A stretch of 64,000 nt of DNA from a virus (lineage: Duplodnaviria > Heunggongvirae > Uroviricota > Caudoviricetes): the IMG/VR virus record IMGVR_UViG_3300012942_000033, positions 35,512 through 99,511 of that record; one strand, written 5' to 3'. This document shows positions 7,715-61,197 of the stretch, in pieces (the first letter of the stretch is position 1; each line of letters starts with the position of its first letter). The notes below the pieces were generated by a model. The model saw nothing but the letters and a program-made list of their open reading frames with translations. It searched no databases and was not told the origin of the DNA. The position numbers and the translations under genes are program-made.

Positions 7715-9376
7715 TTATTGGTCTGATATCAGGTGTGTGACATCTCGAACAACACTTTGAATTTCAATGAGTTTACCTTCTTCATCAAAGATGCCCCGAT
7801 CGATCCAATCCTGCCAACGGATCTCATCATGGCGTTGAATGCGATGAACGCCCCGTCTAACTTCATGCTCGGGCCGAATAGCTAACATGTAATCTTTGAA
7901 CTTCTGGTGATCACTCGGTGGTATCACCTCAAAGAGTGAGAAGCCGTTGATATCCTCGAGTTCTACATCAAAGTAGTCTCGAAAGGTCTGGTTGCTGAAG
8001 GTGATCTCGAAATTACTGTTGAAGCAGACCACCATATCAATGGTGTTATCGATGATCGTCTTGTAACGCTCTCGAGCTGTCTTGAGTTGGGTCTCGATAT
8101 CCTTGAACTCTGTGACATCACGCACGATCGCGATACGAGCCTCTGCGTTATCCCACTCAATAGCTCTACTGTTTACTGCGACCTCCTTGACATCACCCTC
8201 TTTAGTCAGGAACAGAGTCTCGTAGGATTTATCACTAACCAGGTCGGCGTCAGCGATGATCTTCTCGCGTTCCAAAGGATGAAGAAGATCGAAAGGATTG
8301 AGTTTCTCCAATTCAGTGTCATTGTAACCAGTCAGATTATAGGCTCGCTCGTTCCAATCCATGAGCTTCTTATAGTTGTGGATGAACATGGATTCCGATG
8401 ATGCGTCACTGAATGCTCTGAAATGTGATTCGCTCCGACTCAAATCCGTGTAGGCTTTCTTGAGCTCAGTGGTATCGTAGAAAACCAGAATCCATTGAAC
8501 TGCCTGATAGCCTTTGAAAATTGGTGTGATATGAACGTCAAACCACAGCTTCTTAGTGTCTTTGAATTCCAACTGAACCTCGTGGCGGGCGGTGATTTCC
8601 TCTCCTAGCGTTCGGCGCACCTTCCAGTAGGATTGGTCAATACCCAGGATATCTCGGAGATTCCTCTTACTAAGTTCGGCTCGGGTGGTATTGGTGATAC
8701 GCGCAAAGCCTTCATTGACGAATGTGATTTTATAGTCAGGGTCGTTCTTCTCAAGAATCACGAAACCAGTATTCGATGAATCAATCGTCGTAAGTAGCTC
8801 TTGATTCTTCTCGGCTAGCTCTTTCATGATCTTCGAGCTGCGAACTCTGTGAGTCACATTGCGGATCAGAATGATGTAATAGGTCTTGCTGTTGCTACGG
8901 GTGAATTTGCTCGCGCCGACATCAACGTAAATCTTGGCACCATCCTGGCAGATACCCATGAACTCTTCATAATGAACTGTCGCAAAGTCGTCTTCTTCAT
9001 TGACCTGCCCCATCATGTTTTCCATGAAGTCAGAATTAACGACCACTCCATCATCGAAATGAAAGAGGAGTGAGATGCTCTTGCCAATGACCTGGCGTTT
9101 CTTCCAGCCAAACATCGTTTCAGCAGCTGGGTTGAAGCTCTCAATGTTGCCATTGGTATCGACGAGTAGAAGGGCGTCACTTAGGAGTCTGGATGTTTGG
9201 TCGATCTGGTTCGCGTAGTCATCAATTCGGGCCTGGAGTGCGGTTGTGACATCCTGAGCTAGATCCATTGTGCCCTTGGCGGCCTTCTCTAGAGCTTCGC
9301 TACTATCGAGGGCCGCCTGTAGACTTGCTGATCTTGCTTTCTTCCGATCTTCCTTGGATTGCCCGAACCACTTCAT
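7715..9376 (-). CDS. multi-PAS domain protein (about four PAS/PAC repeats, no recognisable output domain)
   Basis: PAS-like segments recur, for example LLLVDTNGNIESFNPAAETMFGW, FVILEKNDPDYKITFVNEGFARITN, MFIHNYKKLMDWNERAYNLTGY and MVVCFNSNFEITFSNQTFRDYF. No HisKA, GGDEF or HTH domain is seen. Confidence 0.7.
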   Translation of the reverse strand: MKWFGQSKEDRKKARSASLQAALDSSEALEKAAKGTMDLAQDVTTALQARIDDYANQIDQTSRLLSDALLLVDTNGNIESFNPAAETMFGWKKRQVIGKSISLLFHFDDGVVVNSDFMENMMGQVNEEDDFATVHYEEFMGICQDGAKIYVDVGASKFTRSNSKTYYIILIRNVTHRVRSSKIMKELAEKNQELLTTIDSSNTGFVILEKNDPDYKITFVNEGFARITNTTRAELSKRNLRDILGIDQSYWKVRRTLGEEITARHEVQLEFKDTKKLWFDVHITPIFKGYQAVQWILVFYDTTELKKAYTDLSRSESHFRAFSDASSESMFIHNYKKLMDWNERAYNLTGYNDTELEKLNPFDLLHPLEREKIIADADLVSDKSYETLFLTKEGDVKEVAVNSRAIEWDNAEARIAIVRDVTEFKDIETQLKTARERYKTIIDNTIDMVVCFNSNFEITFSNQTFRDYFDVELEDINGFSLFEVIPPSDHQKFKDYMLAIRPEHEVRRGVHRIQRHDEIRWQDWIDRGIFDEEGKLIEIQSVVRDVTHLISDQ

Positions 9377-18231: not shown

Positions 18232-18846
18232 TTGGAGGCGCCTATGTCAGTAATCCAGATCTCTCGGGTACAGCATCGTCGGGGCACAAGTGGTGAACTA
18301 CCTGACTCACTTGCCGATGGTGAGATTGGCATGACGACTGATACAGGCGAGGTCTTCATTGGAGCGCCTAACAATCCTAAAGTTCAAGGCCGCCACAGTT
18401 ACCCTTATCAGAATATCAAGATTCTAACTGAGCTTGACGTTCAGTATGGAGTCAGGGGTGATGTCTATTATCACGGAGCCCTGGAGAGCGCATTAAGCCC
18501 GGCCAATGGGCAATGGGTTTCTCTAGTAGGTCTATTCCCCACCAACTTGTCTCGCGATTTTGCGGTTCTGGATTTCTCACTCAGTAACAGTGCAGGCACG
18601 GTGAAGGTTCTTGGCGAGATCAGTGCTTGTATAGCAAGTGATGCTGATCTCAGTACAGTCAATGCTACTGTTAAGACCTCGGTTGGCTGGAGCGGTGATC
18701 TTAGTGATGCGTTCAAGCTGACCAAGGTAGATAATGAAGGCACTAGCACCTCAGGTATCACCTGGCTTGCTATGAAGAATACCTCAGGCATCCAGCTTAC
18801 GCTTTGTGTGTCAGGGCGGATTTGGACCACTCCTTCGGTTAGCTAA
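18232..18846 (+). CDS. hypothetical protein
   Basis: 204-aa ORF. Confidence 0.5.
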   Translation: MEAPMSVIQISRVQHRRGTSGELPDSLADGEIGMTTDTGEVFIGAPNNPKVQGRHSYPYQNIKILTELDVQYGVRGDVYYHGALESALSPANGQWVSLVGLFPTNLSRDFAVLDFSLSNSAGTVKVLGEISACIASDADLSTVNATVKTSVGWSGDLSDAFKLTKVDNEGTSTSGITWLAMKNTSGIQLTLCVSGRIWTTPSVS

Positions 18847-25295: not shown

Positions 25296-26269
25296 CCAAA
25301 CCAGCAGTAAGAAAGGGTGATAAGTGTACGGGTCATGGCGACGCAAAGCCAAGACCTTGTGACCAGGGTTCACCTGATACTTTCATCAATGGTAAGGCAG
25401 CCCACCGCCAGGGTGACCATTGGGCAGTTCATAAAAATCATGACAGTCACCTCGCAAAAGGTTCTGATTGCGTCTTTGTGAATGGTAAGGGTCAGGGTAG
25501 GGTTGGTGATCCTATCCTTTGTGGAAGTCGGTGCCAACAAGGTAGCCCGAACGTCTTCGTAGGTGATAATTCGAGTAGTGGCGGATCAAGTCAGTCAGGC
25601 CAAGGAGCAGCTTCTGCACCAATTGATTACACCAACCCATACCGCTTTGAAGGTGGTGCTGGTGCGGATGGTTATTCGGGTTCAGGCACCATTGAGACTG
25701 AAGGCGGCGTTACTGGTGCTAGTGATTCCGATACACCAGCCTCTGATCCTGATTCACAGGAGCCACTAGACGCAAGTGATGATGACGTTGATTGGCTCAC
25801 CACGTGTATGATTGATGAGGCGGGTAATCAGAGCCAGAAGGATGCTTGGGCAGCGGTAGCCGCTGTGGTAGTAGATCGACTACAGACTGGTAGAGCGACC
25901 GGAACGGTTAATCCGGCCTGGCACGGAACTATCAAGGGTATCGTTCTAGCTAATGGTCAATTCTCGGGCTTCTACTTTGAGATGATCAACCGTCACTACA
26001 CTAGAGTCGTAGCAAGCAAGGATTGGGCGGCTGCTGAAAAACGTGGCAAACAGAAGATGGCACGATATCGTCAGCGTTCTCAATGGAATGCCTTCCATGA
26101 GGTGGCCCAACAGGTCGTCAATGGATCCTACCAGGGCGGTGCAGGCTGGAGATTAGTTAAGAGTCGCCCTGCGCTCATGTACTGTAATCTGGCCATCTCA
26201 AATCCGCCCTGGGCCACCCAGAGCAAATATGTCACTAAAATCGAGGATCACACCTTTTTCGTGGCTTGA
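25292..26269 (+). CDS. PAAR-like domain protein fused to a SleB-type cell-wall hydrolase
   Basis: N-terminus has PAAR/gp5.4-like Cys/His/Gly repeats (KGDKCTGHGD...GSPDTFINGKAAHRQGDHWAVH...VFVNGKGQGRVGDPILCGSRC...SPNVFVGDN). C-terminus has a SleB/Hydrolase_2-like segment (CMIDEAGNQS...VVVDRL...GIVLANGQFSGF). ATGA overlap with the upstream gene. Confidence 0.6.
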   Translation: MTKPAVRKGDKCTGHGDAKPRPCDQGSPDTFINGKAAHRQGDHWAVHKNHDSHLAKGSDCVFVNGKGQGRVGDPILCGSRCQQGSPNVFVGDNSSSGGSSQSGQGAASAPIDYTNPYRFEGGAGADGYSGSGTIETEGGVTGASDSDTPASDPDSQEPLDASDDDVDWLTTCMIDEAGNQSQKDAWAAVAAVVVDRLQTGRATGTVNPAWHGTIKGIVLANGQFSGFYFEMINRHYTRVVASKDWAAAEKRGKQKMARYRQRSQWNAFHEVAQQVVNGSYQGGAGWRLVKSRPALMYCNLAISNPPWATQSKYVTKIEDHTFFVA

Positions 26270-26294
26270 CATCTTGGTGTCACGTTGCTATATA
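26266..26294 (+). promoter_or_regulatory. sigma70-type promoter driving the tmRNA gene
   Basis: TTGACA (26266-26271), a 17-nt spacer, then TATATA (26289-26294). This places the transcription start near 26301, just ahead of the tmRNA acceptor piece. Confidence 0.55.
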
Positions 26295-26300
26295 GGATGG

Positions 26301-26760
26301 GCTATTGAAGACCGACGCCAAGTATCGACTAGCGGACGCGGGGGCAGTACCCGCCAGGTCCACCATAGCAAGTGACCTAGGAGCACTCGGAGCAATCCGG
26401 GCGGCGCCAACACCACCGAGGGAATCGAAGGATCTCAACCGGATCTGGGTCTTGAGGATGGTATGAGGAAGGGTGGATGAAAGTGAGGCACCGCGGAAGG
26501 CCTCATGAGTAAGGTAAGTCACTTGCTTTGCTGGGCCTGAACTTAGGATCGACGTGGAAGAGAACGGCCGAGAGAAGATCCGGGAAACCGGTGAAGCGAT
26601 GGTAGGGGTGGCACCCTGGGGAAACCCGCAAAGCCACGCATGTAAATGCAAACGACAACACTGTCGAGGTCGCTCTCGCCGCTTAATTGTGGCGCGGGTA
26701 ACCGCCTAAAGTCTTAGGGCTTCGACTCCTTAAGCGCGGTATGGTTCCACCGGGCAACAG
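26301..26760 (+). ncRNA. ssrA: circularly permuted (two-piece) tmRNA gene (ssrA); acceptor piece precedes coding piece
   Basis: The acceptor 3' end GGACGCGGGGGCAGUACCCGCCAGGUCCACCA (CCA at 26363-26365) matches the E. coli tmRNA 3' end GGACGCGGGUUCAACUCCCGCCAGCUCCACCA. Downstream, GGGCCUGAACUUAGGAUCGACGUGG (from 26533) matches the tmRNA 5' end GGGGCUGAUUCUGGAUUCGACGGG. The tag frame GCA AAC GAC AAC ACT GTC GAG GTC GCT CTC GCC GCT TAA (26648-26686) encodes ANDNTVEVALAA followed by stop. The 3' boundary is approximate. Confidence 0.8.
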
Positions 26761-26827
26761 AAAGGGCCAACCTTCCTATTACTCTTGACCTATTGGTAAA
26801 CTCCATTATTCTGCCGGGTAATGGGGT

Positions 26828-28615
26828 ATGTGGATAGATCAGGGAGACCACAGAAACCTTTATAACGGGTCGCATCCAAGGCTTACATCTCCGGAGCGGG
26901 GGTTTGCTATGTCGGATGAGCCAGTTAATTTTTCATGGATTGACCAAGCGTTGGTCTATGATCAAGACAAAGAGGAACGAGTGGATAAAGCAATCAAATC
27001 CGACATCAACATCAAGATGCTTACCGAACTCGCTCCTACTATCATATGGACGCGGAATCCTAAGTGGGATTTGACCTATATCAACTCATTCTGGTTTGAA
27101 TTCACTGGATGTCAGGATAGGCCAGTCAGTGAGATTGATTGGCAGGTCTTCATCCATCCTGATGATCTACCTACCATTACAGCTTATTGGAAGACCGCTC
27201 TTGAGCTCAACTTGGAGTTCAAGGTTGATTTTCGCCTTCGCCGCCGAGACGGTGAATATAGGTGGTTCCAATCAGTAAGCCGGCCAGTCACCAACAAAGC
27301 CGGTGAAGTCATTCAGTGGCTCGGTGTTTCGTCGATCATCCAAGACCTCAAAGAGGCACAGGAGGAGACCGAACGTCTTCGTCAGGAACTTGAGGAGAAA
27401 GTTCTCCAAAGAACCCAGGCCCTTGAGGAAGCACAGGCACAGGTTCTAGCCGAAATAAGCGCACGTCAGGCCACCCAGGATGCTCTTCGTCAAGCTCAGA
27501 AGATGGAGAGCGTGGGCCAATTAACTGGTGGCATTGCGCATGATTTCAACAACATGCTCACGGTGATCATTGGTAACCTTGAGTTACTCAAAATGAGTGC
27601 GCCCAAGTTGGGGGATAATCCAGTCGCGAAACGCATGGAACGCAATGTCAGTATGGCGATCGAAGCCTCGATTAAAGCCGAGAAGCTTACTGCTCAGTTG
27701 CTAGCGTTCTCGAGAAAAGCCCGTCTTCAGCTTGAACGTCTTGATGCCAATGCGGTCGTTGTTGGTGTCAGAGAAATGGTTGAACGAGCTGTTGGTATCG
27801 CTGTTAGTTGTGAGATCGACATACAGGATGATCTCTGGCTTTGCCTTTCGGATAAGACCCAGCTCGAGAGCGCAATCATTAACCTGGCTATCAATGCTCG
27901 CGATGCAATGCCTCTGGGTGGTAAGTTGTGTATCTCCACGGCCAACAAGGAAGTTGGTGATCTACGCTTCGTTAGTGTTTCGGTCAGCGATACCGGTCAG
28001 GGTATGAACCTAGAAACCCTGGAGAAGGCTTGCGAACCATTCTTCACCACCAAGGACGTTGGTAAGGGAAGCGGTCTTGGGCTCTCGATGGTTTATGGAT
28101 TCTGCCAGCAAAGCAATGGCAAGTTGATTCTTGAGAGCGAGGAAGGCCATGGCACTACTGTTGAAATGCTCTTCCCCTATACGGCTGGCGAAACCATTGA
28201 GGCCACCCAAGCGGAGGAAGACTTCAACTTTGATGCCAACAAACAAAGCATCCTAGTTGTTGATGATGAACCAGCGGTCAGAGAATTAGCGTGTCAGCTA
28301 TTGACTGATGCGGGGTTCAATGTCGTTAGCGCTCAAGATGGTCAGACGGCCATCAATATAGTCAAAGACCTCACCATACCACTCGACCTTCTATTCACTG
28401 ATATCGTGATGCCAGGCGGCATTGACGGATTTAGTCTAGCCAAGGTGGCCAATCAGGTACGCCCCACTCTACCTGTTATCTTTACGACTGGCCACGCGGA
28501 AGTTGCCCTCAAGGAATTGAGGAAGGATCTGTCGCAGAAGCTCAAAGTCATCGGCAAACCTTACCGGTTGAACGAGTTGAAGCAAATGATCCTTCATGAA
28601 CTGGCTATCCAGTAA
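26828..28615 (+). CDS. hybrid sensor histidine kinase (PAS, HisKA, HATPase_c and C-terminal receiver)
   Basis: PAS-like N-terminus. H-box [20 protein letters not shown]-boxes DTGQGMN and [14 protein letters not shown]. Receiver domain [12 protein letters not shown]...[14 protein letters not shown]...TTGH. The true start may be the downstream ATG (MSDEPVNF). Confidence 0.8.
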
Positions 28616-29625: not shown

Positions 29626-30000
29626 ATGTCGAATGGTCGTATTCTTCTAGTTGAGGATGAGCCAATGCTCCATTTCCTCTGGGAGGATATATGCGCGATC
29701 AACGATTTCGAAGTTGCCTTCACGGCCATGACCTGCCAGGAGGCGCTGGCTTACCTGGAAGAGAATAGTGATGACCTCTCGGGTGTTATCCTTGATGTGA
29801 ACCTACACGGTGAGATGTCTAATAGGGTAGCCGCCTATCTTAGAACCCTTGCCTTGCCAGTGGTAGTATCAACGGGTAGTCATCCAGATACGCTACCTCT
29901 GGAATTCAAGGGATGGCCCACACTTTGTAAACCTTACCGCCCTCACGACATTGTGAGCATTTTGCCAACCCTGGCTTTTAGCAAGCAGACAGTTAGGTAA
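29626..30000 (+). CDS. stand-alone response-regulator receiver (CheY-like) domain protein
   Basis: ILLVEDEP acidic pocket, VILDVNLHG with a candidate phospho-acceptor Asp, and VVVSTGSH. 124 aa with no output domain. Confidence 0.5.
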   Translation: MSNGRILLVEDEPMLHFLWEDICAINDFEVAFTAMTCQEALAYLEENSDDLSGVILDVNLHGEMSNRVAAYLRTLALPVVVSTGSHPDTLPLEFKGWPTLCKPYRPHDIVSILPTLAFSKQTVR

Positions 30001-30464: not shown

Positions 30465-31127
30465 GTGACTCACCGTTCGCTTAGAGCGGTTCACATGGAT
30501 TTCATGGCCTTCCTCACCGCAACGCAGAATCTGGCTTTCCTTATTGCTGGCATTCTCGTAGCAGCAATCTTCGTCGTCGAGTTCCTAGGAACTATGATCG
30601 GGTTCTCCTTAAGTCATCTAGGACCTGACTTCCACATTGACCTAGATCATGATGGCACACCTGATCACCTTGAGGGTGCGGGCCTTATGGCTTGGCTCAA
30701 TCCTGGTGGCGTGCCGTTTATGATCTTCCTCACGTTGGGGACCACTATCTTCGCGATAGTGGGTTATGCGATTCAGGCTGTGAGTTGGTCTAACACCGCT
30801 TACCTTCTGCCTGGATTGGTCATTTGGCCAATTTCATTCCTATTGACGCTCATATGCGTTCGACCTTGGACCCGCTGGATCAACCGGGTTCTACCAAGGG
30901 AAGAAAGTAGCGATGTCAGCCTTAGCAGCCTTGTTGGTGAGTCTGGCGTAGTGACTGTGGGCCCTGTAACCAAAGAGCAATTTGGTTTCATCAGGGTTCG
31001 CGACAAGTTTGGCACTGATCATTCGATCCAGGTCGCAGCAAACAATGATGAGGTGTTTGCGATTGGTGCCGAAGTTCAACTAGTCGGACCTCACCCTACT
31101 AACCTGTATGCGTATCTAATCCGCTAA
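30465..31127 (+). CDS. NfeD-like membrane protein (partner of the SPFH/flotillin protein)
   Basis: Several N-terminal transmembrane helices. C-terminal OB-fold-like segment (GESGVVTVGPVTKEQFGFIRVRDKFGTDHSIQVAANNDEVFAIGAEVQLVG). Lies directly upstream of the flotillin gene, as in NfeD–SPFH operons. Confidence 0.6.
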   Translation: MTHRSLRAVHMDFMAFLTATQNLAFLIAGILVAAIFVVEFLGTMIGFSLSHLGPDFHIDLDHDGTPDHLEGAGLMAWLNPGGVPFMIFLTLGTTIFAIVGYAIQAVSWSNTAYLLPGLVIWPISFLLTLICVRPWTRWINRVLPREESSDVSLSSLVGESGVVTVGPVTKEQFGFIRVRDKFGTDHSIQVAANNDEVFAIGAEVQLVGPHPTNLYAYLIR

Positions 31128-31139
31128 CTGGAGAAAACC

Positions 31140-32876
31140 ATGTCTATCAAGTTCATTGGCTTGCTAGTCGGGCTGGCGGTCGTAGGATTCCTGATCCTCG
31201 GCATGATCATCACCCGGCTATATAAGCGAGCTTCCAAAGAGACTGCCTTCGTTCGCACCGGTATGGGCGGCCAGAAGGTGATCAAGGATGGCGGTGCGCT
31301 CGTCATTCCAGTCGTTCATGAAACCCTCGATATCAATATGCAGACCCTTCGTCTGTCGGTAAATCGCGGTGGTCAGAACGATTCGCTTATCACAAAGGAT
31401 CGCTTGCGCGTTGACGTGAATGCTGAATTCTACGTTCGGGTTGCTCCAGATACGGAGAGCATTGCTACGGCGGCTCAGACGCTTGGTCGGCGAACAATGG
31501 ATCCTAGCCAGCTAAGCACCCTCGTTGAGGGCAAGTTCGTTGACGCCCTGCGCGCTGCCGCTGCTTCGATGGATATGCAGGATCTGCATGAGAAGCGCAC
31601 CGAGTTCGTTCAGAAGGTCAAGACGACTGTTGCGGAGGATCTGAAGCAGAACGGTCTTGAACTTGAGTCGGTCTCGCTGACCAACTTGAACCAGACTGAC
31701 ATCAGTCACTTTGACGCCAACAACGCCTTCGACGCCGAGGGTCTTGCGGTCATTGCCAAGGTCACTAGTGCGCGCCGCAAGGAGCGCAATGACATCGAGA
31801 AGCAGACCGAGGTCGAAATCGAGACCAAAAATCTCGAGTCAACCAAGCGCACCTTGGAGCTCAAGCAAGAGGGTGAATTTGCTCGCCTGGATCAGGAGAA
31901 GCAGGTTCAGACTCGTGCGGCAGAGCAGGAATCGCAGCTTGCTATCGCTCGTGCGGAACGTGAACGTGAGGCGGCTGTCGCTGCTGAAGCGGCGAAGCAG
32001 GCGTCGGAACAGGCTCGTATTGAGCGTGAACGTGGCGTGAAGGTGTCTCAGACGGAAGCTGACCAGGCCACTGAACTGGCGGCTCAGGCCTCGCGTATTG
32101 CGGTTGCGGAGAAGTCAGAGGCAGAATCCAAGGCGAAGGCCAAGGCTGATGAGGCGCGAGCCGAAGCAACCAAGGCTGCTGAAAACGTGACGACCGTTTC
32201 GGCCACCGCACGAGCTGATCGTGAGGCGCAGATTGCGGTTATCGCTGCCGAGGGTGAAGCGAAGCAGAAAGCCGCGAGCATCACGGTTCAGGCCGAGGCT
32301 GAGCTCAAGGCTGCTGATTCACAGGCCAAGGCCAAGGAACGTCTCATCGAGGCTGACGCCAAGCGTTACGAGGTCGAATCCACGGGTCAGCGTTCGCTCC
32401 ATGAGGCTGGCAACGTGATCAGCCCCGAGAGCATGAACTTCCAGCTTCGGAAGGCCATGGTCGAGCGTCTGCCTGAGATCATCGAATCGATGACTAAGCC
32501 CATCGAGAAGATTGACAGCTTCCGTGTCGTTCATATGAACGGAGGCCTCAACATGGGCCATGGTGCTGCCAATGACGGCGCACCGGCTCTCGATAAGGGT
32601 AGCCTGTCGAATCAGATGACTGACGCTCTGCTGAACTATCGTATGCAGGTGCCATTCGTCGACGCGCTGGGCAAGGAACTCGGTATCGATTTCACTCAGG
32701 GCATGAATGGCATGGTGACTTCGGCGGGTCTCCCCGTTGAGGTTTCGGATCTGCCGGAAGAGCCCAAGCCCTCGATTCCGACCGAAGCACCTCGGTCTGC
32801 CACTACTCGTGAAGCCCCGCTGGCTCCTGAGGATAAGGCAGAGATCCAGAAGCTTGCTGGGATCGCCAACGGCTGA
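31140..32876 (+). CDS. flotillin-like SPFH/band-7 protein (FloT/YqiK-like)
   Basis: N-terminal transmembrane helix plus SPFH core, then a long Ala/Glu/Lys/Arg-rich coiled coil (EREAAVAAEAAKQASEQARIERE...). Confidence 0.8.
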   Translation: MSIKFIGLLVGLAVVGFLILGMIITRLYKRASKETAFVRTGMGGQKVIKDGGALVIPVVHETLDINMQTLRLSVNRGGQNDSLITKDRLRVDVNAEFYVRVAPDTESIATAAQTLGRRTMDPSQLSTLVEGKFVDALRAAAASMDMQDLHEKRTEFVQKVKTTVAEDLKQNGLELESVSLTNLNQTDISHFDANNAFDAEGLAVIAKVTSARRKERNDIEKQTEVEIETKNLESTKRTLELKQEGEFARLDQEKQVQTRAAEQESQLAIARAEREREAAVAAEAAKQASEQARIERERGVKVSQTEADQATELAAQASRIAVAEKSEAESKAKAKADEARAEATKAAENVTTVSATARADREAQIAVIAAEGEAKQKAASITVQAEAELKAADSQAKAKERLIEADAKRYEVESTGQRSLHEAGNVISPESMNFQLRKAMVERLPEIIESMTKPIEKIDSFRVVHMNGGLNMGHGAANDGAPALDKGSLSNQMTDALLNYRMQVPFVDALGKELGIDFTQGMNGMVTSAGLPVEVSDLPEEPKPSIPTEAPRSATTREAPLAPEDKAEIQKLAGIANG

Positions 32877-32906
32877 TCCTACCCTAGCAGGGCTTTGTAG
32901 GGAGGG

Positions 32907-33647
32907 GTGGCAGAAGTGCCACCCCTTTCCTATCTGAGTCTTTCTGTTGTAGACATTTCGGTAGCGAGCGCTAATACTGACTCTGACATGAGGAATAGCA
33001 TGACATTACGTATCGGAGGCATCGCAGCTTTGTGTGGTGCAGTTTGTGTCTTTGTGGGTGGTATGGCTGCGTTCCCCTTACATCTTATCGGTGACCTCAT
33101 GGTCAGCACTCCACTATCTGTGGCAACGGGTGTGGGTATTTGGTATTTCTGGCCTGGCCGCAAACCAGCCAATGATATCGAGACTCTGCTGAACGATCAG
33201 GAACTCCTCAAGAATGCGACCGGTCTGAGTAAGCGAGACATCGTCGAGACAATCAGGCTAGTAAGTGATAAGTTGGATCGCATCCTCATGAGTGCTGCTC
33301 AGATAAATGAGCCTAAGGTCACACGTCGTATCCAACATCTTGATGCGATTGGTCGGAAGATCATCGACGAGTTCAGGGTGCGACCCATTGGAATCCAGAG
33401 GTCACAAACATGGATCCATGCCTACTTGGATCAAGCCATTGAGTGCGTCGACCAATATGCTCAATTACATGGATCGAAGATCCGCAATGACGAGGTGCGA
33501 CGTCAGATGGTAGAGTTTGACGATATGTTGGTCGAACTCCAGGAGAAGTCGCAGGAATTGCTTGATCTGCTACTGACCCATGATACGACGACCTTCGATG
33601 TCAATGTTTCAGTATTTCGTGATATGATGAAGAACGAGGGAATCTAA
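32907..33647 (+). CDS. membrane protein (possibly XpaC-like); start likely downstream at MRNSMTLRIGG
   Basis: Two N-terminal transmembrane segments then a helical domain. Its position directly upstream of a TelA-like gene mirrors the Bacillus xpaC–yaaN pair. Confidence 0.35.
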   Translation: MAEVPPLSYLSLSVVDISVASANTDSDMRNSMTLRIGGIAALCGAVCVFVGGMAAFPLHLIGDLMVSTPLSVATGVGIWYFWPGRKPANDIETLLNDQELLKNATGLSKRDIVETIRLVSDKLDRILMSAAQINEPKVTRRIQHLDAIGRKIIDEFRVRPIGIQRSQTWIHAYLDQAIECVDQYAQLHGSKIRNDEVRRQMVEFDDMLVELQEKSQELLDLLLTHDTTTFDVNVSVFRDMMKNEGI

Positions 33648-34810
33648 TGACCGAGGCAACTATGACGCAGACCACCCTACCAGCTCTGACTCCTGAGGCA
33701 TCTCAGGTCTTGGATTCAACCTCGCTGGTTAGTTTGGCGCCGGCAGGCTCAGCGATTCAGATCACGAGTGTTTCTGAAGAGCGAGCCAAGGAGTTGGCTC
33801 AGAAGATCAACATCCACGACACACAGAGCATTATCGGCTTCGGTGTTGAAGCCCAGAAGGGTGTGACCCAGCTGAGTGAACAGATGCTTGAGGGTGTGCG
33901 AACCAAGGATACTGGCCCGGCTGGTGAAGCCCTCAACCTTATGGTTCATGAGATGCGTGGGCTGGATTTCAGCAAGCTCACATCCAAGCAAGGTTTGGTG
34001 GCGAGGATCCTCCACAAGGCCAGCAAGGTCACGCTATTCCTCGAGCAGTATGAAACGGTTCAATCGAAGATCAACAAGACCCAAGCGGTTCTTGATAGTC
34101 ACCGTATCCAGATGCTTCGTGGAGTGAAGGTGCTTGATCTGCTCTACAAGAAGACCCTCGAACTCCTGTATAACCTGGATGAGCAGATCGCAGCCGTTCA
34201 ATATAAACTCAACGAGGTCAACGCTAAGGATATCCCCGAGGCAAATGAGAAGGCCCAGCAGACCAAGGATATGGCTGACACCCAAGCGGCTGCTGATTTG
34301 ATCCAAGCTCGTGATGCCTTGGAGCGAAAGCTTCATGATCTACAGCTGAACCGCCAGATCACCATCCAGGCCCTACCTAGCATTCGTATCGTTCAATCCA
34401 ACGAAGTCGGTCTTTCGGAGAAGATCCAAGGCCAGATCCTCAACGCTTTGCCTCTTTGGAAGCGTAATATCGCACTAGCAGTCGAAATGGCGAAGACGCA
34501 GAATGCTGCCAAGGCCACCAAAGCAGCTAGTGATTTTACCAATGAACAGCTTCGTATTGGTGCGCAGATGCTTCAGCAATCCAACCTAGCGGTTCGAACT
34601 GAAATCGAGCGCGGTATGGTTGACATTGACAGCGTCAAGTTTGCCAACGATCAGTTGATCCAGACTATTGAGGATACGATCACGATCGCTCAGGAGGGTA
34701 AGAATATGCGAGCCCAGGCGGAACAGGAGCTCGCCCAGGCCGAGCAGAAGCTCAAGGAAACGCTTCTGAGCGCTGCTAATCGACAGGCGAATATGAAGGC
34801 TCTCGCGTAA
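33647..34810 (+). CDS. TelA-like (toxic anion resistance) family protein
   Basis: 387 aa, helical, with TelA-like conserved segments (IGFGVEAQKGVTQLSEQML, LNLMVHEMRGLDFSKL). ATGA overlap with the upstream gene. Confidence 0.55.
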   Translation: MTEATMTQTTLPALTPEASQVLDSTSLVSLAPAGSAIQITSVSEERAKELAQKINIHDTQSIIGFGVEAQKGVTQLSEQMLEGVRTKDTGPAGEALNLMVHEMRGLDFSKLTSKQGLVARILHKASKVTLFLEQYETVQSKINKTQAVLDSHRIQMLRGVKVLDLLYKKTLELLYNLDEQIAAVQYKLNEVNAKDIPEANEKAQQTKDMADTQAAADLIQARDALERKLHDLQLNRQITIQALPSIRIVQSNEVGLSEKIQGQILNALPLWKRNIALAVEMAKTQNAAKATKAASDFTNEQLRIGAQMLQQSNLAVRTEIERGMVDIDSVKFANDQLIQTIEDTITIAQEGKNMRAQAEQELAQAEQKLKETLLSAANRQANMKALA

Positions 34811-35259
34811 TGCGAAAAGCCACCCTTATCCTGGGTTGGTTGTGTCTTATCGGCGCGGTGGAGGGGCCAGGGCTCATAGCTAGCCCACCTGATAAGTTTG
34901 GATCACACGTAATCCAAATCGATCACGTCTATGATGGTGATACCTTCTACTTCAGGATGCCCGGTGCTTGGTCAGAGATCAGCATGGTAGGTGTTAGGGT
35001 GTTGGGTATTGACGCTCCTGAGAAGCGTGGTCGATGCCCTGCTGAACGCGCCTTGGCAAAAGAAGCCACTATTATGGCTCAACGCTTCTTAAGCCGTGGC
35101 CCGGTCACATTACAGCACGTTCGTTGGGACAAATACGGTGGTAGGATTGAGGCTGATGTTCTGGTTGACGGTCAGAGCCTCTCCGAGTATATGATCGACC
35201 AGAAGATGGCTCGACCCTATATGGGTGGTCATCGAGACAAAATGGAGTGGTGTCGTTGA
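34810..35259 (+). CDS. thermonuclease (staphylococcal nuclease-like) with an N-terminal signal or transmembrane segment
   Basis: SNase motifs GDTFYF and VRVLGIDAPE plus conserved Arg residues; hydrophobic N-terminus. Confidence 0.7.
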   Translation: MRKATLILGWLCLIGAVEGPGLIASPPDKFGSHVIQIDHVYDGDTFYFRMPGAWSEISMVGVRVLGIDAPEKRGRCPAERALAKEATIMAQRFLSRGPVTLQHVRWDKYGGRIEADVLVDGQSLSEYMIDQKMARPYMGGHRDKMEWCR

Positions 35260-35762
35260 CTGAGCAGTTTACTCTTTTCTACGGTGGGCCGGCAAGCCAA
35301 TGGTATGCCAGTGAGTTCACTGTTGATGGAGTGACCTACAACACCGCTGAGCAATACATGATGGCGCAGAAAGCCATCCTTTTTGATGATGCCGATGCCC
35401 TAGACATCATCATGAATACCGATAATCCGAAGATCCAGAAAGCCGCAGGTCGCCAGGTTCGAGGTTTCGATAAGGCACTCTGGGAGCAGAACGCCAAACT
35501 CTTCGTCTACCGCGCCAATTTCGCCAAGTTCACTCAGAACGCCGACCTTTTGGAATGGCTCATAGCAACTGTCGGTACAGCCCTTGTAGAAGCAAGCCCC
35601 TGGGACACCATCTGGGGGATAGGATTGGCAGCTAGTGATCCTCGAGCGCTAGATCGAAAGACCTGGAAGGGCACTAACTGGCTCGGTGAGATTATTACCA
35701 AGGTGCGCGCTGACATCATTGCGATGTCGATGATTCTCTTGGAACACCCGTTGGTATCCTAA
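35247..35762 (+). CDS. NADAR domain protein (YbiA/RibX-like N-glycosidase)
   Basis: FYGGPASQWYASEF..DGVTYNTAEQYMMAQKA...FTQN...LLAT...LVEASPWDTIWGIG aligns with E. coli YbiA. Confidence 0.7.
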   Translation: MVSLTEQFTLFYGGPASQWYASEFTVDGVTYNTAEQYMMAQKAILFDDADALDIIMNTDNPKIQKAAGRQVRGFDKALWEQNAKLFVYRANFAKFTQNADLLEWLIATVGTALVEASPWDTIWGIGLAASDPRALDRKTWKGTNWLGEIITKVRADIIAMSMILLEHPLVS

Positions 35763-41056: not shown

Positions 41057-41117
41057 TGGTTGACACTCACCAGTCTGGTGCTAGATCTAGCCTTGAGACA
41101 ACAAGGAGATCGACGTG
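41057..41117 (+). promoter_or_regulatory. conserved promoter/leader cassette (second copy)
   Basis: TGGTTGACAC...ACAAGGAGATCGAC-GTG. The -10-like element is weaker here (GGTGCT). Confidence 0.35.
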
Positions 41118-42242
41118 CTGAATAAGCTGATGACACCGGAGACGAAGAAGCTGAGCAAGGCCTTTGACATGGCCGGCTTCGAAATCCGTTTCGTCGGCGG
41201 CTGCGTTCGGGACGTTCTGCTGGGTGTTGAACCCAAGGATGTGGATTTCTGCACTGACGCCACTCCTGACGAGATGCGCGATATCGCGGTAATCAACAAG
41301 TTCAAGTTCCTGCCCACTGGCATCGATCACGGCACCGCAACCATCGTAGTTGATGGTGAGCCCTTTGAGGTCACCACCCTGCGCGTTGATGCGGAGACTG
41401 ATGGTCGTCATGCCAAGGTCGAGTTCACCAGGGATTTTGAACTGGATGCCGAGAGGCGTGACCTGACCATCAACGCAATGTCGATGGATACAAAGGGCAA
41501 TCTCTTCGACTATTTCGGTGGCCAGGAGGATCTGAAGAACAAGGTCGTGCGGTTCGTCGGTGATGCGAAGACGCGCATCGAGGAGGATTACCTGCGTATC
41601 CTGCGTTACTTCCGTTTCGCGGCTCGGTTCGATGCACAGATGGATCAGGAGACGCTGGATATCTTCAGCGATCCTGAAGTGCTGGCTGGTCTGAATCGAG
41701 TTAGTGTTGAGCGGTTCTGGTTGGAGATGTCAAAGCTGCTGACCTATAGCGCTCGGGTGCGAGTCATGGAGGCTATCTTTGGCACTGGCGTCAATGCTTC
41801 GTTGAATCTGTTTCGGTTCGAGCCCAATGAGCTGAGCCGGGCCGATGATGCGGTGGCCGCATTGGCAACGCTGATCTCGAGCGACGACGAGGAGCGGTTC
41901 TTCCAAATCTGGAAGATGAGCTCTCCGGAGGAGGCAAAGGTTCGCAACATGATCCGTAACCGCGGTGGGTTCCTGGATGAAGTGCGCGTTGAGGTCATGC
42001 TGACCCGCGATAAGTTCCCCAGGGATCACGTGGTGAGCCTGGCTCTGGTCGCCAGTGAGCCCACGCTGGCTCAACATGCTAGGGATTTTGTTGTTCCGAC
42101 CTTCCCCATTACGGGTAAGGATCTGATGGGTGTTGGTATGGCTCCAGGCCCACAGATGGGTCAGCGCCTGCGTCGGATGGAAGCAGCCTGGGTTGATAGC
42201 CGGTGGAACCTGGCCAAGGAAGCCCTGATGGAGATCGAGTAA
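41115..42242 (+). CDS. CCA-adding tRNA nucleotidyltransferase / poly(A) polymerase family protein
   Basis: Class II nucleotidyltransferase head motifs: FVGGCVRDVLLG, DVDFCTDATPDE, GIDHGTATIV, RRDLTINAMS. GTG start. Confidence 0.8.
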   Translation: MLNKLMTPETKKLSKAFDMAGFEIRFVGGCVRDVLLGVEPKDVDFCTDATPDEMRDIAVINKFKFLPTGIDHGTATIVVDGEPFEVTTLRVDAETDGRHAKVEFTRDFELDAERRDLTINAMSMDTKGNLFDYFGGQEDLKNKVVRFVGDAKTRIEEDYLRILRYFRFAARFDAQMDQETLDIFSDPEVLAGLNRVSVERFWLEMSKLLTYSARVRVMEAIFGTGVNASLNLFRFEPNELSRADDAVAALATLISSDDEERFFQIWKMSSPEEAKVRNMIRNRGGFLDEVRVEVMLTRDKFPRDHVVSLALVASEPTLAQHARDFVVPTFPITGKDLMGVGMAPGPQMGQRLRRMEAAWVDSRWNLAKEALMEIE

Positions 42243-45132: not shown

Positions 45133-45810
45133 ATGGCCAAGAGAGCAGAAATGCCTAAATATCAATCGACAAAGACCTACGGCACTGATCGTGGTCTCTC
45201 CTGTTGCTTTCGCCAGTGGAAAGCAGATCATTCCCATTGTTCCACTCTTCATGGATACAGCCTGGGCTTTAAGTTCACCTTTGAGTCTGAGACACTTGAT
45301 GAAAAGAACTGGTGTTTTGATTTCGGAGGTATGAAGCCGATCAAAGCCTACTTGGATTACATGTTTGACCATACCATTCTGGTAGCGGAGGATGATCCAG
45401 CTCTTGAAGTTTTCAAGACTCTGGCGGCATTCTCGACAAAGGAAGAATTCAACGGAACAACCGATCATATTGGCTACCAGGAACCAACCCCTTACTCTCT
45501 AGGTCGGGTTTGTGATCTCCGTATCGTTCCTGGAGTGGGTTGTGAGCTCACGGCTAAGATGGTTTATGAGAAGACCGTTGAACTGTTGGAACAGATGAAG
45601 ACTGGTGATCTAGGCCGTTATACGGTCAATCCAGATGTGCGCCTAGTCAGCGTTGAATGCTTTGAGCATTCTTCGAATAGCGCCATCTACTATGGTGAGA
45701 ATGACCGAAAGGTTTTCGCCGTTGATGTTGGTAATCAGACTACTGAAGACCTAGCTTTCTTCACCAAGAAATTGGCAGAGGGATTAGCCGTTCCACCACT
45801 TGGTGAGTAA
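45133..45810 (+). CDS. 6-pyruvoyl-tetrahydropterin synthase / QueD-like protein
   Basis: HCSTLHGYS (CxxxHG[HY]) and FDFGGMKPIKAYLDYMFDHTIL resemble PTPS/QueD motifs. Confidence 0.5.
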   Translation: MAKRAEMPKYQSTKTYGTDRGLSCCFRQWKADHSHCSTLHGYSLGFKFTFESETLDEKNWCFDFGGMKPIKAYLDYMFDHTILVAEDDPALEVFKTLAAFSTKEEFNGTTDHIGYQEPTPYSLGRVCDLRIVPGVGCELTAKMVYEKTVELLEQMKTGDLGRYTVNPDVRLVSVECFEHSSNSAIYYGENDRKVFAVDVGNQTTEDLAFFTKKLAEGLAVPPLGE

Positions 45811-47193: not shown

Positions 47194-47646
47194 ATGGCTT
47201 TGGTTGATCCAGAACGACCGGAAGATCAGATGGCTTTACTCGATGAAGCCAGCATCTACTTCCTGCGAGCAATCAAGCAGCATTATACCCGAGATACATC
47301 ACTTGATGTAATGGAAGCCCTTACGCCCATTCTGGGTAAGGATTGGAAGGGGCGGATCATCTTTGGTCTGATGGCGAATAAGCACCAGGCCATTAGGGCT
47401 ATCAGTATTAACCGTATGACTGCCCCTGCACTTGTGAATAAGATCAAGGCAATCAAGGAAGTTCGAGCAATCAGTCGGTTGGGTCTCGTTGAAGCTAAGA
47501 CTCTTGTTGAGGCGGCGTATGAGCGCTCACAGGTTGTTAAGGTGGCTGAGCAGCCCGAAACCATGTCTCAGGATAGTTGGAATCTGATCCTAAGCAATAG
47601 TATCAACGCCATCAAGGATGCTGGCTTTAGAGTGGAGATCTCATGA
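47194..47646 (+). CDS. hypothetical protein
   Basis: 150-aa ORF with a GTTGACAC box upstream (47144-47152). Confidence 0.5.
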   Translation: MALVDPERPEDQMALLDEASIYFLRAIKQHYTRDTSLDVMEALTPILGKDWKGRIIFGLMANKHQAIRAISINRMTAPALVNKIKAIKEVRAISRLGLVEAKTLVEAAYERSQVVKVAEQPETMSQDSWNLILSNSINAIKDAGFRVEIS

Positions 47647-59361: not shown

Positions 59362-60618
59362 ATGAGTGAAACCAAAAAGAATCTGAGCTGCTCTTTCTGT
59401 AGCAAGCGACAGGAAGACGTTCAGAAGCTAATTGCTGGCCCTGATGTTTTCATCTGTAATGATTGCGTTCAGCTTTGCGCAGATATCCTCAAAGAGGATG
59501 AGGGCGCGATTGCTTCCTTGGGTTTCAAAGACGGTATTCCTAGCCCTCGCCAGATCAAGGAGTTCCTGGATCAGTATGTGATTGGGCAGGATGAGGCCAA
59601 AATGGTCATGGGTGTTGCGGTTCATAATCATTACAAGCGTCTGGCCAATCCAGTCGTTGATGATGTTGAACTCGAGAAATCCAATATCCTCCTACTTGGC
59701 CCCACCGGCTCCGGTAAGACCCTGATGGCTCGAAGCATTGCGAAGCTTCTTGATGTGCCTTTCACGATTGCTGATGCGACCAGCCTCACTGAAGCAGGTT
59801 ATGTGGGTGATGATGTCGAGACGATCATCACACGCCTACTCCAAGTCTGTGATAATGATGTATCGAAGGCAGAGCGTGGTATCATCTACCTGGATGAGGT
59901 GGATAAGAAGGCTAAGAGGGGTGATTCTGCTTCCATTAGTCGTGATGTCTCGGGTGAAGGCGTCCAACAAGCCCTCCTCAAGATCATTGAGGGTAGTGAA
60001 GTTCGAGTTCCAGTAACGGGTAACCGCAAACATCCTAATGCCGAAATGGCGGTCGTAAACACCAAGAATATCCTCTTCATTGTTGGTGGGGCCTTCGTGG
60101 GTCTCGACGATATTGTGGCCAAACGCCTCAACAAGAATCGAAGCGGCATTGGTTTTGGGGCGGCGATCCAAATGGCTTCTGATCCAAAGAAAGCAGCTAG
60201 CGAGGCTTTCCTCAAAATGGTCGAACCAGAGGATCTAACCAAGTTCGGTCTGATACCTGAACTAGTGGGCCGTCTTCCGGTTATTACCAATCTAGAAGAG
60301 CTAGATCAGGATCAAATGGTTAAGGTACTCACTGAACCCAAGAACGCGCTAGTGAAGCAATTCCAGAAGCAGTTCCAACTCGCTGGGGTTCAATTGGAAT
60401 TCGATGAGGATGCCTTGAGGGCAATCGCCAAGGATGCGATTATCCGTAAGACTGGAGCACGTGGTCTTCGAAGCGTTATCGAAAAGCGCTTGATCAAGGT
60501 CCAATTTGATCTACCTGATCTCAAGGCTCAAGGGGCCCATGCGGTTCGAGTAAGTCAGGATGTCATTACTGGTTCGGCCGAACCACTCGTCGTTTATGAG
60601 AAAGCGGCCAATGAATGA
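59362..60618 (+). CDS. clpX: ATP-dependent Clp protease ATP-binding subunit ClpX
   Basis: N-terminal C4 zinc-binding domain (CSFCSKRQEDVQKLIAGPDVFICNDCVQLC). Walker A LLLGPTGSGKTLMA. ClpX-type IGF-loop region and sensor motifs. Confidence 0.85.
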   Translation: MSETKKNLSCSFCSKRQEDVQKLIAGPDVFICNDCVQLCADILKEDEGAIASLGFKDGIPSPRQIKEFLDQYVIGQDEAKMVMGVAVHNHYKRLANPVVDDVELEKSNILLLGPTGSGKTLMARSIAKLLDVPFTIADATSLTEAGYVGDDVETIITRLLQVCDNDVSKAERGIIYLDEVDKKAKRGDSASISRDVSGEGVQQALLKIIEGSEVRVPVTGNRKHPNAEMAVVNTKNILFIVGGAFVGLDDIVAKRLNKNRSGIGFGAAIQMASDPKKAASEAFLKMVEPEDLTKFGLIPELVGRLPVITNLEELDQDQMVKVLTEPKNALVKQFQKQFQLAGVQLEFDEDALRAIAKDAIIRKTGARGLRSVIEKRLIKVQFDLPDLKAQGAHAVRVSQDVITGSAEPLVVYEKAANE

Positions 60619-60678
60619 TTGACACCAATTACGCTCGTGTTAATCTCCCCGTTATCTATAGGAAAGGAAGTACTGCCT

Positions 60679-61197
60679 GTGAGTTCTAATTATGCGGTGA
60701 ATGACCAAATCCGAGCAAGGGAGGTCAGACTCATCGCCGACAATGGTGAGCAAGTTGGAGTCATTTCAACCATTGAGGCTCGCCGCCGGGCTAATGATGC
60801 CGGCTTGGATCTAGTAGCCATCAATATCAGCAACGGGGTTCCGATCTGTAAGATCCTCGATTATGGCAAGTTCAAATATGATCAGAGCCGTAAGGATCGC
60901 GAGAATGCGAAAAAGAATCGCGAATCACGAGTAGAGCTCAAAGAGATCCAGCTCAGGCCCACCACAGACAGTAATGATATAGCGATCAAAGCCAAAAGAG
61001 CTCAAGGCTTCCTCGAGGATGGCAATAAGGTCAAAGTCATCCTGAAATTCAAAGGGCGTGAGATCACTCACATGGATGTTGGCGCACAGGTAATGCAGAC
61101 CTTCCTTGCCAGCCTGAGTGACTACAAACTGGAACGCCCGGTAAGCCGCAGCGAACGGCAACTTTTTACGATCTTGGTGCCTCTCCCCAAGAAGTAA
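60679..61197 (+). CDS. infC: translation initiation factor IF-3
   Basis: Aligns along its length with E. coli IF3: IRAREVRLI vs IRAQEVRLT, GLDLVAIN...PICKILDYGKFKYDQSRK vs GVDLVEIS...PVCRIMDYGKFLYEKSK, and KEIQLRPTTD...KFKGREITHMDVG vs KEIKFRPGTD...RFRGREMAHQQIG. The start is probably non-ATG (GTG at 60679 behind GGAAAGGAAG); the TTG at 60619 is the alternative. Confidence 0.8.
   Translation: MSSNYAVNDQIRAREVRLIADNGEQVGVISTIEARRRANDAGLDLVAINISNGVPICKILDYGKFKYDQSRKDRENAKKNRESRVELKEIQLRPTTDSNDIAIKAKRAQGFLEDGNKVKVILKFKGREITHMDVGAQVMQTFLASLSDYKLERPVSRSERQLFTILVPLPKK

Follow-up and report, generated by a model that had tools for sequence, protein, structure and literature searches.

A predicted phage-borne, two-piece tmRNA gene of alphaproteobacterial type in a relative of jumbo phages

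Does a tailed phage carry its own transfer-messenger RNA (tmRNA), and does it carry it in the circularly permuted form, in which the 3′ half of the tRNA-like domain (TLD) is encoded ahead of the 5′ half and of the tag reading frame? The question is raised by a locus in a 64-kb stretch of viral DNA (IMG/VR record IMGVR_UViG_3300012942_000033), referred to here as the window; all coordinates are window positions and lie on the plus strand unless marked. An original prediction, made from the letters alone, had proposed a permuted, phage-encoded tmRNA with its own promoter at this place. We consider it very probable that the locus holds a tmRNA gene that is phage-encoded and functional, circularly permuted (two-piece) in form and alphaproteobacterial in type. 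Direct support comes from the anatomy of the sequence, the pairing and covariation of its parts, the match of its promoter, its phage context, and selection on its tag. Two-piece tmRNAs have already been documented in phages, and all of the sequence-level features by which an alphaproteobacterial two-piece tmRNA is recognised are present here.

Anatomy, pairing and promoter of the permuted gene

ARAGORN calls a single gene in the window, a permuted tmRNA at 26270-26777 with the tag ANDNTVEVALAA. With Infernal, the Rfam model alpha_tmRNA (RF01849) scores 98.8 bits on the plus strand (gathering score 50, E 9e-26), the match spanning 26262-26772 and model positions 1-355, and the more general tmRNA_permuted (RF04321) scores 70.3 bits (gathering score 47, E 2e-11). 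The permuted gene order that had been predicted is therefore recovered by ARAGORN and by both covariance models, well above their thresholds. The original prediction had itself named a competing possibility, that the region is a minus-strand protein gene and not an RNA. This possibility does not hold, as the models score the plus strand and the minus-strand open reading frame (ORF) at 26280-26651 (123 aa) is fragmented in the closest relative, the IMG/VR contig L001. A permissive scan of the surrounding 1.2 kb returned no Rfam element besides the tmRNA. ARAGORN found no tRNA gene in the 64 kb, and the tmRNA is the sole tRNA-like gene there; 33-66 tRNAs have been reported for related jumbo phages, against zero in this stretch.

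The predicted acceptor piece, which holds the 3′ tRNA-like half, runs from 26300 to 26365; it is delimited by Infernal alignments and covariation, and its 5′ end is predicted from the promoter. It contains three strands of helix P2 placed by covariation (P2c 26301-07, P2b 26317-19 and P2a 26329-34), a T arm (26338-42/26350-54) with the alpha-type T-loop GGCAGUA (26343-49) placed by Infernal, and the acceptor 3′ strand CAGGUCC (26355-61), which is followed by the discriminator A and an encoded CCA (ACCA, 26362-65). From 26331 to 26365 the window and L001 are 100% identical. An intervening segment (IVS) of 167 nucleotides (nt), 26366-26532, lies between this CCA and G1 and is predicted to be removed on maturation.

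The coding piece, 26533-26772, was placed with Infernal (alpha_tmRNA positions 1-355), its 3′ end being the end of the model match. It opens with the acceptor 5′ strand GGGCCUG (26533-39) and a conserved D-loop-like AGGAUCGAC, and continues with P2a (26553-57), P2b (26566-68), a GNRA hairpin (26580-83/26588-91), P2c (26597-26603) and the pseudoknot PK1, located by a script (stem 1, 26604-07/26614-17; stem 2, 26608-12/26633-37). The tag frame called by ARAGORN occupies 26648-26686, with the resume codon GCA at 26648, the tag ANDNTVEVALAA and the stop UAA at 26684-86, and the piece closes with a conserved 3′ domain ending GGCAACAGAA. The gene order is thus the 3′ tRNA half to the CCA at 26365, the IVS, G1 at 26533 and the tag at 26648, and each part of the original prediction, namely the CCA end, the 167-nt gap, GGGCCUG at 26533, and the tag with its stop, is found where it had been placed.

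ARAGORN is right in its overall call and wrong in internal detail. It sets the 5′ tRNA half at gene positions 179-209, within the IVS, a placement we reject and one that leaves a U.U mismatch at pair 3. Infernal, like the original prediction, puts the 5′ half at 26533, where a perfect 7-bp stem with G3:U70 is followed by AGGAUCGAC.

Whenever 26300-26365 was cofolded with the coding piece, the T arm and the intermolecular acceptor stem both formed; P2 was unclear from cofold energy alone and was resolved with relatives. For this purpose the window and the IMG/VR contigs L001, L029 and L046 were aligned over the acceptor piece and the 5′ part of the coding piece, and an explicit structure of 31 pairs in six helices (acceptor stem, T arm, P2a, P2b, GNRA/UUCG hairpin and P2c) was tested. 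Every one of the 124 cells in these four sequences is a standard pair (124/124), and in 8 of the 31 pairs both partners have changed, every one of the six helices containing one or more of these pairs, whereas a control in which the 3′ partners were slid by 1-3 columns paired in 29-44% of cells and gave 0-1 covarying pairs. The structure was drawn by eye from the same four sequences, which inflates the paired fraction, and the sole independent test is a fifth contig, L079, which was added after the structure had been fixed. L079 has 31/31 standard pairs with new compensatory changes, bringing the total to 155/155 cells in five sequences. Compensatory changes are seen at acceptor pair 4 and at the closing pair of the T arm, and P2a, P2b and P2c each have a pair changed on both sides. 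The G3:U70 pair (G26535-U26359), whose G3 sits in the GGGCCUG strand, is invariant in 5/5 sequences. Both joints between the two pieces that the original prediction had called for, the acceptor stem and P2, can therefore form, and both covary.

PK1 is an H-type pseudoknot, formed in the window by AGGG/CCCU (stem 1) and GUGGC/GCCAC (stem 2), that lies 10 nt ahead of the resume codon GCA. It was tested by script, since MAFFT put one sequence out of register in this region. It recurs at the homologous place in all five sequences, with 10-12 nt between its end and the resume codon, and its stem 2 shows covariation (GUGGC/GCCAC, UGGUU/GACCA and UGAUU/GAUCA). When compared with shuffled sequences, PK1 is strong in three of the five and weak in the other two.

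A sigma-70-type promoter lies directly upstream at 26265-26293, where CTTGAC (26265-70) and CTATAT (26288-93) are separated by 17 nt. CTTGAC-N17-CTATAT is the sigma-70 consensus of Sinorhizobium meliloti (PMC2873474), an alphaproteobacterium, and the site agrees with it at 12/12 positions and has the optimal spacer. The original prediction had described the same site read one base to the right, as TTGACA (26266-71), a 17-nt spacer and TATATA (26289-94), and it turns out to be the sole such site in the window, with one occurrence of CTTGAC-N17-CTATAT in 64 kb against 0.02 expected from shuffles. These counts come from an explicit pattern search, as the general promoter scanner demands a T at the last −10 position of TATAAT and so skips this site. 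Both hexamers are identical in L001, where the spacer and the bases after the −10 differ. Nearly all of the viral permuted tmRNAs that we collected have similar −35 and −10 elements, the −10 ending 40-44 nt before the GGAC of the tRNA-like domain, and transcription probably starts near 26300. A simple promoter scanner found no second promoter within the IVS from which the two pieces might be transcribed separately. Beyond the gene, the stretch from the tmRNA 3′ end to the histidine kinase gene contains a promoter-like TTGACC-N16-TATTCT (26785-26812, plus strand), most of which is conserved in L001.

The tag frame (GCA AAC GAC AAC ACU GUC GAG GUC GCU CUC GCC GCU UAA) encodes 12 aa with an ANDN start and a hydrophobic, ALAA-type end. 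L001 differs from it by four nucleotides in 4 of the 13 codons, and its peptide is identical; because all four differences are synonymous, the tag peptide is under selection.

Phage context and relatives of the gene

The tmRNA gene sits between a PAAR gene and a hybrid histidine kinase gene, with phage genes for tens of kilobases on each side. The window encodes a primase/DnaB-type helicase, a class I ribonucleotide reductase (RNR), type II topoisomerase subunits, a CCA-adding enzyme, ClpX and IF-3, along with virion structural proteins, Ig-like proteins and, directly upstream of the tmRNA, a fusion of PAAR with a cell-wall hydrolase. Several of its genes look cellular (ClpX, IF-3, RNR, TelA, flotillin and the histidine kinase), and similarity to phage records at the DNA level was absent both for the tmRNA (distant mode) and for the 25 kb around it (near mode), so that the window might be read as a piece of bacterial chromosome or plasmid and the tmRNA as the host's own. 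We regard this as the least credible of all the readings considered. PHROG profiles match virion structural, tail and PAAR proteins, the best protein matches and the gene order lead to the jumbo phages Phosso and Atu_ph07, and relatives are present in IMG/VR, one of them on a 436-kb viral contig. Furthermore, the window contains no rRNA gene, ribosomal-protein operon or tRNA gene, and nearly all of its genes are on one strand.

The placement of the gene is conserved. The order RNR large subunit, RNR small subunit, two ORFs, PAAR, tmRNA, hybrid histidine kinase and two further ORFs is common to the window, L001, L029 and L046, whose syntenic proteins are 46-97% identical. A PAAR profile search added three further contigs, L077, L078 and L079, each with a permuted tmRNA right after PAAR, and L079 is on a viral contig of 435,856 bp. 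By protein, the closest isolates are Sinorhizobium phage Phosso (469 kb) and Agrobacterium phage Atu_ph07 (490 kb), the identity to Phosso being 37% for a structural protein and 64.7% for ClpX. Window and Phosso are collinear over the structural gene, PAAR, SPFH, TelA, a nucleotidyltransferase, PTPS, topoisomerase, ClpX and IF-3, and Phosso too has a permuted alpha-type tmRNA beside PAAR, which Infernal scores at 113.3 bits with tmRNA_permuted and 108 bits with alpha_tmRNA and whose tag, ANDNVSTKVALAA, is similar. The Phosso gene (L074:13554-14243, minus strand; about 349,553-350,242 of PV764938.1) occupies an unannotated 750-nt gap and is missed by ARAGORN; its IVS is 410 nt long. It differs from the window gene in that this IVS is unrelated and that the tmRNA lies on the opposite strand relative to PAAR, in a phage whose proteins are 37-65% identical to those of the window. 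With the same placement in seven viral contigs and in Phosso, an isolated jumbo phage, the claim that this tmRNA is phage-encoded is well founded.

A phage need not use a tmRNA gene in order to contain one. Genes for tmRNA are frequent integration sites, ssrA fragments occur in prophages, and many of the permuted tmRNAs in IMG/VR lie on short contigs that could span a prophage-host junction, so the gene could be a decaying or passenger copy of a host ssrA, or what is left of an ssrA integration site, with no function of its own. For this locus we think that very improbable. No part of the gene is missing, and a consensus promoter of its own precedes it; in eight or more phage genomes, among which protein identity has fallen to 46-63%, its position is unchanged, and the helices of the RNA have been kept by compensatory changes. 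In addition, no ORF scanned in the window matched an integrase family, and the closest isolated relatives are jumbo phages, of which AP-J-162 is described as lytic. Rather than host flank or integration scar, the tmRNA gene is an old, stable and vertically inherited part of a jumbo-phage clade.

When compared with bacterial tmRNAs, the window gene is like Caulobacter crescentus ssrA and RF01849 in its permuted order, T-loop (GGCRGUA), G3:U70 pair and encoded CCA, and also in its PK1 before the resume codon, its ANDN...LAA tag, its 3′ GGCAACAGAA and a promoter that falls within the Rfam model. It differs from RF01849 in the upper part of P2, which departs from the consensus, and in an IVS of 167 nt against about 50 nt in the Rfam consensus, and from alphaproteobacterial tmRNAs in being carried by a phage and in its 12-aa tag, against the 20-24 aa of the bacterial tmRNAs that share its TLD pattern.

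Among phages, an ssrA of the alpha, two-piece type is found in the OM43 phage Melnitz, where an early promoter precedes it (Buchholz et al. 2022, PMC9004378). Melnitz and the pelagimyophages resemble the window in having an alpha-type ssrA that ARAGORN calls as permuted just after a promoter, in a large T4-like or jumbo myophage with nrdA and nrdB. They differ in phage lineage and habitat, and no glutamine riboswitch or other Rfam element accompanies the window gene; moreover, the host of Melnitz is not alphaproteobacterial, whereas the nearest isolates of the window phage infect Rhizobiales. More closely related is the Sinorhizobium jumbo phage AP-J-162, which is reported to have one tmRNA and a clpX directly adjacent to its IF-3 and topoisomerase genes (PMC11242549). 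AP-J-162 and Phosso are of the same phage group as the window phage, with a collinear order that includes a PAAR gene beside the tmRNA and the topoisomerase, ClpX and IF-3 genes; the AP-J-162 paper is silent on whether its tmRNA is permuted. Knowledge of phage tmRNAs goes back to the mycobacteriophage Bxz1 group (cluster C1) and Bacillus phage G (PMC4131195). The one-piece tmRNAs of these phages likewise represent ribosome-rescue RNAs in large phages rich in translation-related genes, but are unpermuted and belong to phages of Gram-positive hosts.

The window gene is a well-supported addition to a small group, the two-piece tmRNAs carried by phages. In a survey that covered 18,146 phage genomes, 402 (2.3%) had tmRNAs, in 133 unique forms, of which 53 were two-piece by ARAGORN, 50 of those 53 coming from marine or aquatic phages (PMC9004378). 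A 2025 tmRNA database lists 79 unique phage sequences (PMC11915505), and our motif scan of IMG/VR gave 58 contigs, about 38 of them with ARAGORN-permuted tmRNAs. We also observed permuted alpha-type tmRNAs in Erythrobacter phage vB_EliS-L02 (L071:1440-1848, OL955261.1), where the gene follows a block of 12 tRNA genes, and in Mesorhizobium phage Cp1R7A-A1 (L072:1439-1848, MT188704.1); both score 84-112 bits and are unannotated in their records. ARAGORN misplaces or misses such genes when the IVS is long, and surveys based on it undercount them, since the tmRNAs of Phosso, vB_EliS-L02 and Cp1R7A-A1 are all unannotated in GenBank. Phosso grows on S. meliloti and would offer a tractable system for the roles of a phage tmRNA and of its IVS.

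The intervening segment

The long and conserved IVS is the unusual part of the gene and a lead worth following. The intervening segment is by definition missing from the mature RNA (PMC11915505). In other viral permuted tmRNAs its length falls between about 30 and 200 nt, the median being close to 80, and within the clade it is 53 nt in L029 and L077, 58 in L046, 63 in L079, about 103 in L078, 167 in the window and L001, and 410 in Phosso. In the predicted fold of the window IVS, a 10-bp closing stem (26367-76/26518-27) is followed by the leader UUGCU (26528-32). A closing stem that starts 0-2 nt after CCA and ends 4-6 nt before G1 is common to the window and the metagenomic contigs, even though the stem sequences are unrelated. 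Such a stem would keep the tRNA halves next to each other before the precursor is cut. Within the clade the IVS has lengthened from 53 to 167 and on to 410 nt, with a closing stem retained at its ends.

Between the window and L001 the IVS is identical at 161/167 positions (96.4%) with zero indels. The codons of the flanking genes are 44-63% identical at third positions, broadly about 55-60%, and 87-98% at second positions; within the tmRNA transcript itself, identity is about 71-80% in the PK1 region, where there is also an indel (71% over 26600-26649). The probability of at least 161 matches in 167 would be 5e-10 at a true identity of 80% and 1e-4 at 88%. The six IVS substitutions break none of the pairs in the fold predicted from the window alone: at 26389/26398 a G-C pair becomes A-U, two further changes give G-U or G-C pairs, and two fall in loops. 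G26389 has an alternative partner, C26417, which is likewise changed to U.

Two explanations of this block have to be weighed, selection and a recent recombination tract between two phages. Recombination is a real possibility, which we place somewhat short of an even chance. Mosaicism within these tmRNA genes is seen directly in L078 (2809-3229) and L079 (2809-3174), whose tmRNAs show no difference between a point shortly ahead of the resume codon and the 3′ end and are strongly diverged in the acceptor piece, the IVS (about 103 against 63 nt) and P2, a pattern that implies recombination within the tmRNA gene. The 167-nt IVS is also carried by two sequences only, and in the control pair, L029 and L046, the IVS is just 65.5% identical. 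Several features of the block are not those of a simple tract, however, in that it starts at the predicted transcription start and is interrupted within the same transcript, both at 26600-26649 (71%, with an indel) and in the tag, where 4/13 codons differ synonymously, and in that the six substitutions spare all predicted pairs, one pair (26389/26398) being changed on both sides. On balance the pattern appears to fit selection better than recombination, judged from the two sequences that carry it. Whether selection would act here on a structured RNA module, either as a third stable RNA (a phage small RNA) or as a controller of tmRNA maturation, is a more tentative matter, and we think this specific role rather doubtful.

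The IVS also contains a near-copy of the acceptor 5′ strand, within 26448-26478, which reads GGUCUUG at 26448-54 (GGUCCUG in L001) and could form every pair with the acceptor 3′ strand but the third, a U.U. It is this near-copy that ARAGORN mistook for the true 5′ half; a degenerate duplication and an alternative pairing partner are both possible readings of it. One possible form of control would be for the near-copy to pair with the acceptor 3′ strand, giving an uncharged fold that lacks G3:U70.

Searches for other identities of the IVS were negative. No Rfam family came near its gathering score in the window or Phosso segments, and no copy of the IVS was found elsewhere in the window. A protein gene in or across the IVS was rejected, the minus-strand 123-aa ORF being fragmented in L001, the plus-strand ORFs having at most 11 codons, and the Phosso IVS containing no long ORF. 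A common origin of the window and Phosso segments was rejected as well, as their similarity does not exceed chance. A search of IMG/VR and the JGI metagenomes for more carriers of the 167-nt IVS returned only the known contig L001.

Predicted tagging function, host and neighbouring genes

The anatomy suggests the following course of events. Host RNA polymerase with its housekeeping sigma factor would start at about 26300 and produce a single precursor of about 470 nt, in which the tRNA-like domain would fold across the IVS with the aid of the IVS closing stem. RNase P would then cut 5′ of G26533 and the tRNA 3′-end pathway would trim to the CCA at 26365, releasing the 167-nt segment; for bacterial two-piece tmRNAs, RNase P and tRNase Z are themselves described only as the “probable” processing enzymes (PMC3985003). 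The 7-bp acceptor stem, P2a, P2b and P2c would keep the acceptor piece, of about 66 nt, joined to the coding piece, of about 240 nt, and host alanyl-tRNA synthetase would charge the RNA with alanine via G3:U70. SmpB and EF-Tu, which the window does not encode and which would come from the host or from the rest of the phage genome, would deliver the RNA to ribosomes stalled on broken mRNAs, where translation would resume at GCA 26648 and append (A)ANDNTVEVALAA. The ALAA end would direct the product to ClpXP, for which the phage would supply its own ClpX. The likely benefit is a supply of freed ribosomes and recycled amino acids during infection, when mRNA breakage is high, and similar benefits have been suggested in the literature (PMC9004378, PMC7162821).

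The degradation step is where the phage genome itself offers a candidate partner. The ClpX homologue that the original prediction had reported in this genome is encoded at 59362-60618 (plus strand), with Pfam zf-C4_ClpX and AAA_2 domains, and has the zinc-finger motif CSFC..CNDC, GSGKT, the pore-1 motif GYVG at 146, RKH at 222 and IGF at 263; all of the motifs for tag engagement and ClpP binding are thus in place. In ClpX the pore-1 and RKH loops engage the ssrA tag, and the IGF loop docks ClpP. Recognition by ClpX involves the C-terminal ALAA of the tag (PMC3985003). The phage ClpX is probably an unfoldase for ALAA-tagged proteins, and the view that an LAA-ending tag here would be a ClpXP degron stands as far as the ALAA end and the ClpX motifs can carry it. 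A functional link between the tmRNA and ClpX is one that we infer, and it is a reasonable one. Directly after clpX, beginning one base beyond its ORF, lies a full-length IF-3 homologue (60619-61197, plus strand), an adjacency also seen in Phosso and AP-J-162, and a protein with an L7/L12 C-terminal domain is encoded 12 kb upstream of the clpX/IF-3 pair (47194-47646, plus strand). With a tmRNA, ClpX, IF-3, an L7/L12-like protein and a CCA-adding enzyme, this jumbo-phage clade has its own translation quality-control kit.

The alpha type of the RNA is indicated by several features that agree with one another, as had been proposed from the ANDN...ALAA tag. The best model is alpha_tmRNA, ahead of tmRNA_permuted, the T-loop is GGCAGUA, the tag starts ANDN, and the promoter follows an alphaproteobacterial consensus; moreover, of nine metagenome-assembled genomes (MAGs) that matched the TLD 3′-half pattern in a genome search, eight have alphaproteobacterial titles. 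The original prediction had gone on to argue that a permuted tmRNA constrains the host, and this holds only in part. The type alone is insufficient, given that Melnitz has an alpha-type tmRNA and infects OM43, but an alphaproteobacterial host is likely from protein relatedness and collinearity with the Sinorhizobium and Agrobacterium jumbo phages and from the promoter consensus. The tag comparison and the TLD pattern name no specific host.

A number of points weigh against a functional two-piece tmRNA gene. That the gene is transcribed, cut into two pieces, charged and used for tagging, that ClpX acts with it and that the phage gains from it are steps we infer from sequence. In its upper part, P2 fits the Rfam consensus badly, with non-canonical marks in the alignment, and our P2 model was derived by eye within the same clade. 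A scan found no intrinsic terminator after the tmRNA. The scanned ORFs of the 64-kb window include neither SmpB nor ClpP, which have to be assumed as partners; huge phages can carry SmpB (PMC7162821). The exact tag is absent among 185,579 bacterial species-representative genomes, and the tags of bacterial tmRNAs with the same TLD 3′-half pattern are 20-24 aa long and very different from the 12-aa phage tag, making the fit to host adaptors uncertain.

The short tag bears in turn on a further reading, in which the RNA would be mainly a modulator and not a rescuer, by titrating SmpB, by out-competing the host tmRNA with a phage tag, or by sensing translation to time lysis. There is precedent in the tmRNA of phage DS6A, which has the tRNA-like domain only and inhibits host tmRNA (PMC4131195; PMC11915505), and the sensing idea has been raised for huge phages (PMC7162821). 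The phage tag is unlike the 20-24-aa bacterial tags, and some members of the clade have a GUC resume codon; given this difference in length and these GUC codons, the phage tag is probably not a simple copy of a host tag. We nevertheless judge the modulator role improbable. The full set of trans-translation elements has been kept under selection, namely the resume context, PK1, a tag with synonymous changes only, and the ALAA end, none of which a pure decoy needs, and a complete phage ClpX fits real tagging followed by degradation. A rescuing, tagging tmRNA is thus the reading we prefer. The GUC codons themselves are found in L077, L078 and L079 (in L079 at about 3101), where the tag frames start VNDN... 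in place of the ANDN... that follows from the usual GCA; GUC would be an unusual resume codon if the ARAGORN frame is right.

Other genes of the window add to the picture of a large phage with many accessory functions. The hybrid histidine kinase directly downstream of the tmRNA (26828-28615, plus strand) has a PAS-HisKA-HATPase-receiver architecture and keeps this place in L001 and L046; a stand-alone receiver domain follows 1 kb beyond it (29626-30000, plus strand), and a protein with four PAS domains is encoded at 7715-9376 (minus strand), suggesting sensory signalling in the phage. A cluster of membrane-stress type at 30465-34810 (plus strand) comprises YqiJ/NfeD-like, flotillin (SPFH), XpaC-like (PF10112) and TelA genes, of which SPFH and TelA are adjacent in Phosso too. 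The regions 34810-35762, 41115-42242 and 45133-45810 (plus strand) jointly hold the nuclease-like/NADAR, CCA-adding and QueD/PTPS-like genes. The Staphylococcal-nuclease-like and NADAR-domain proteins are encoded side by side, and NADAR might counter an ADP-ribosylating defence; the CCA-adding enzyme could repair the 3′ ends of tRNA and tmRNA, and the QueD/PTPS-like enzyme suggests deazaguanine metabolism. Lastly, an ORF at 18232-18846 (plus strand) has an Mtd_N (major tropism determinant N-terminal) domain, which is known from the targets of diversity-generating retroelements.

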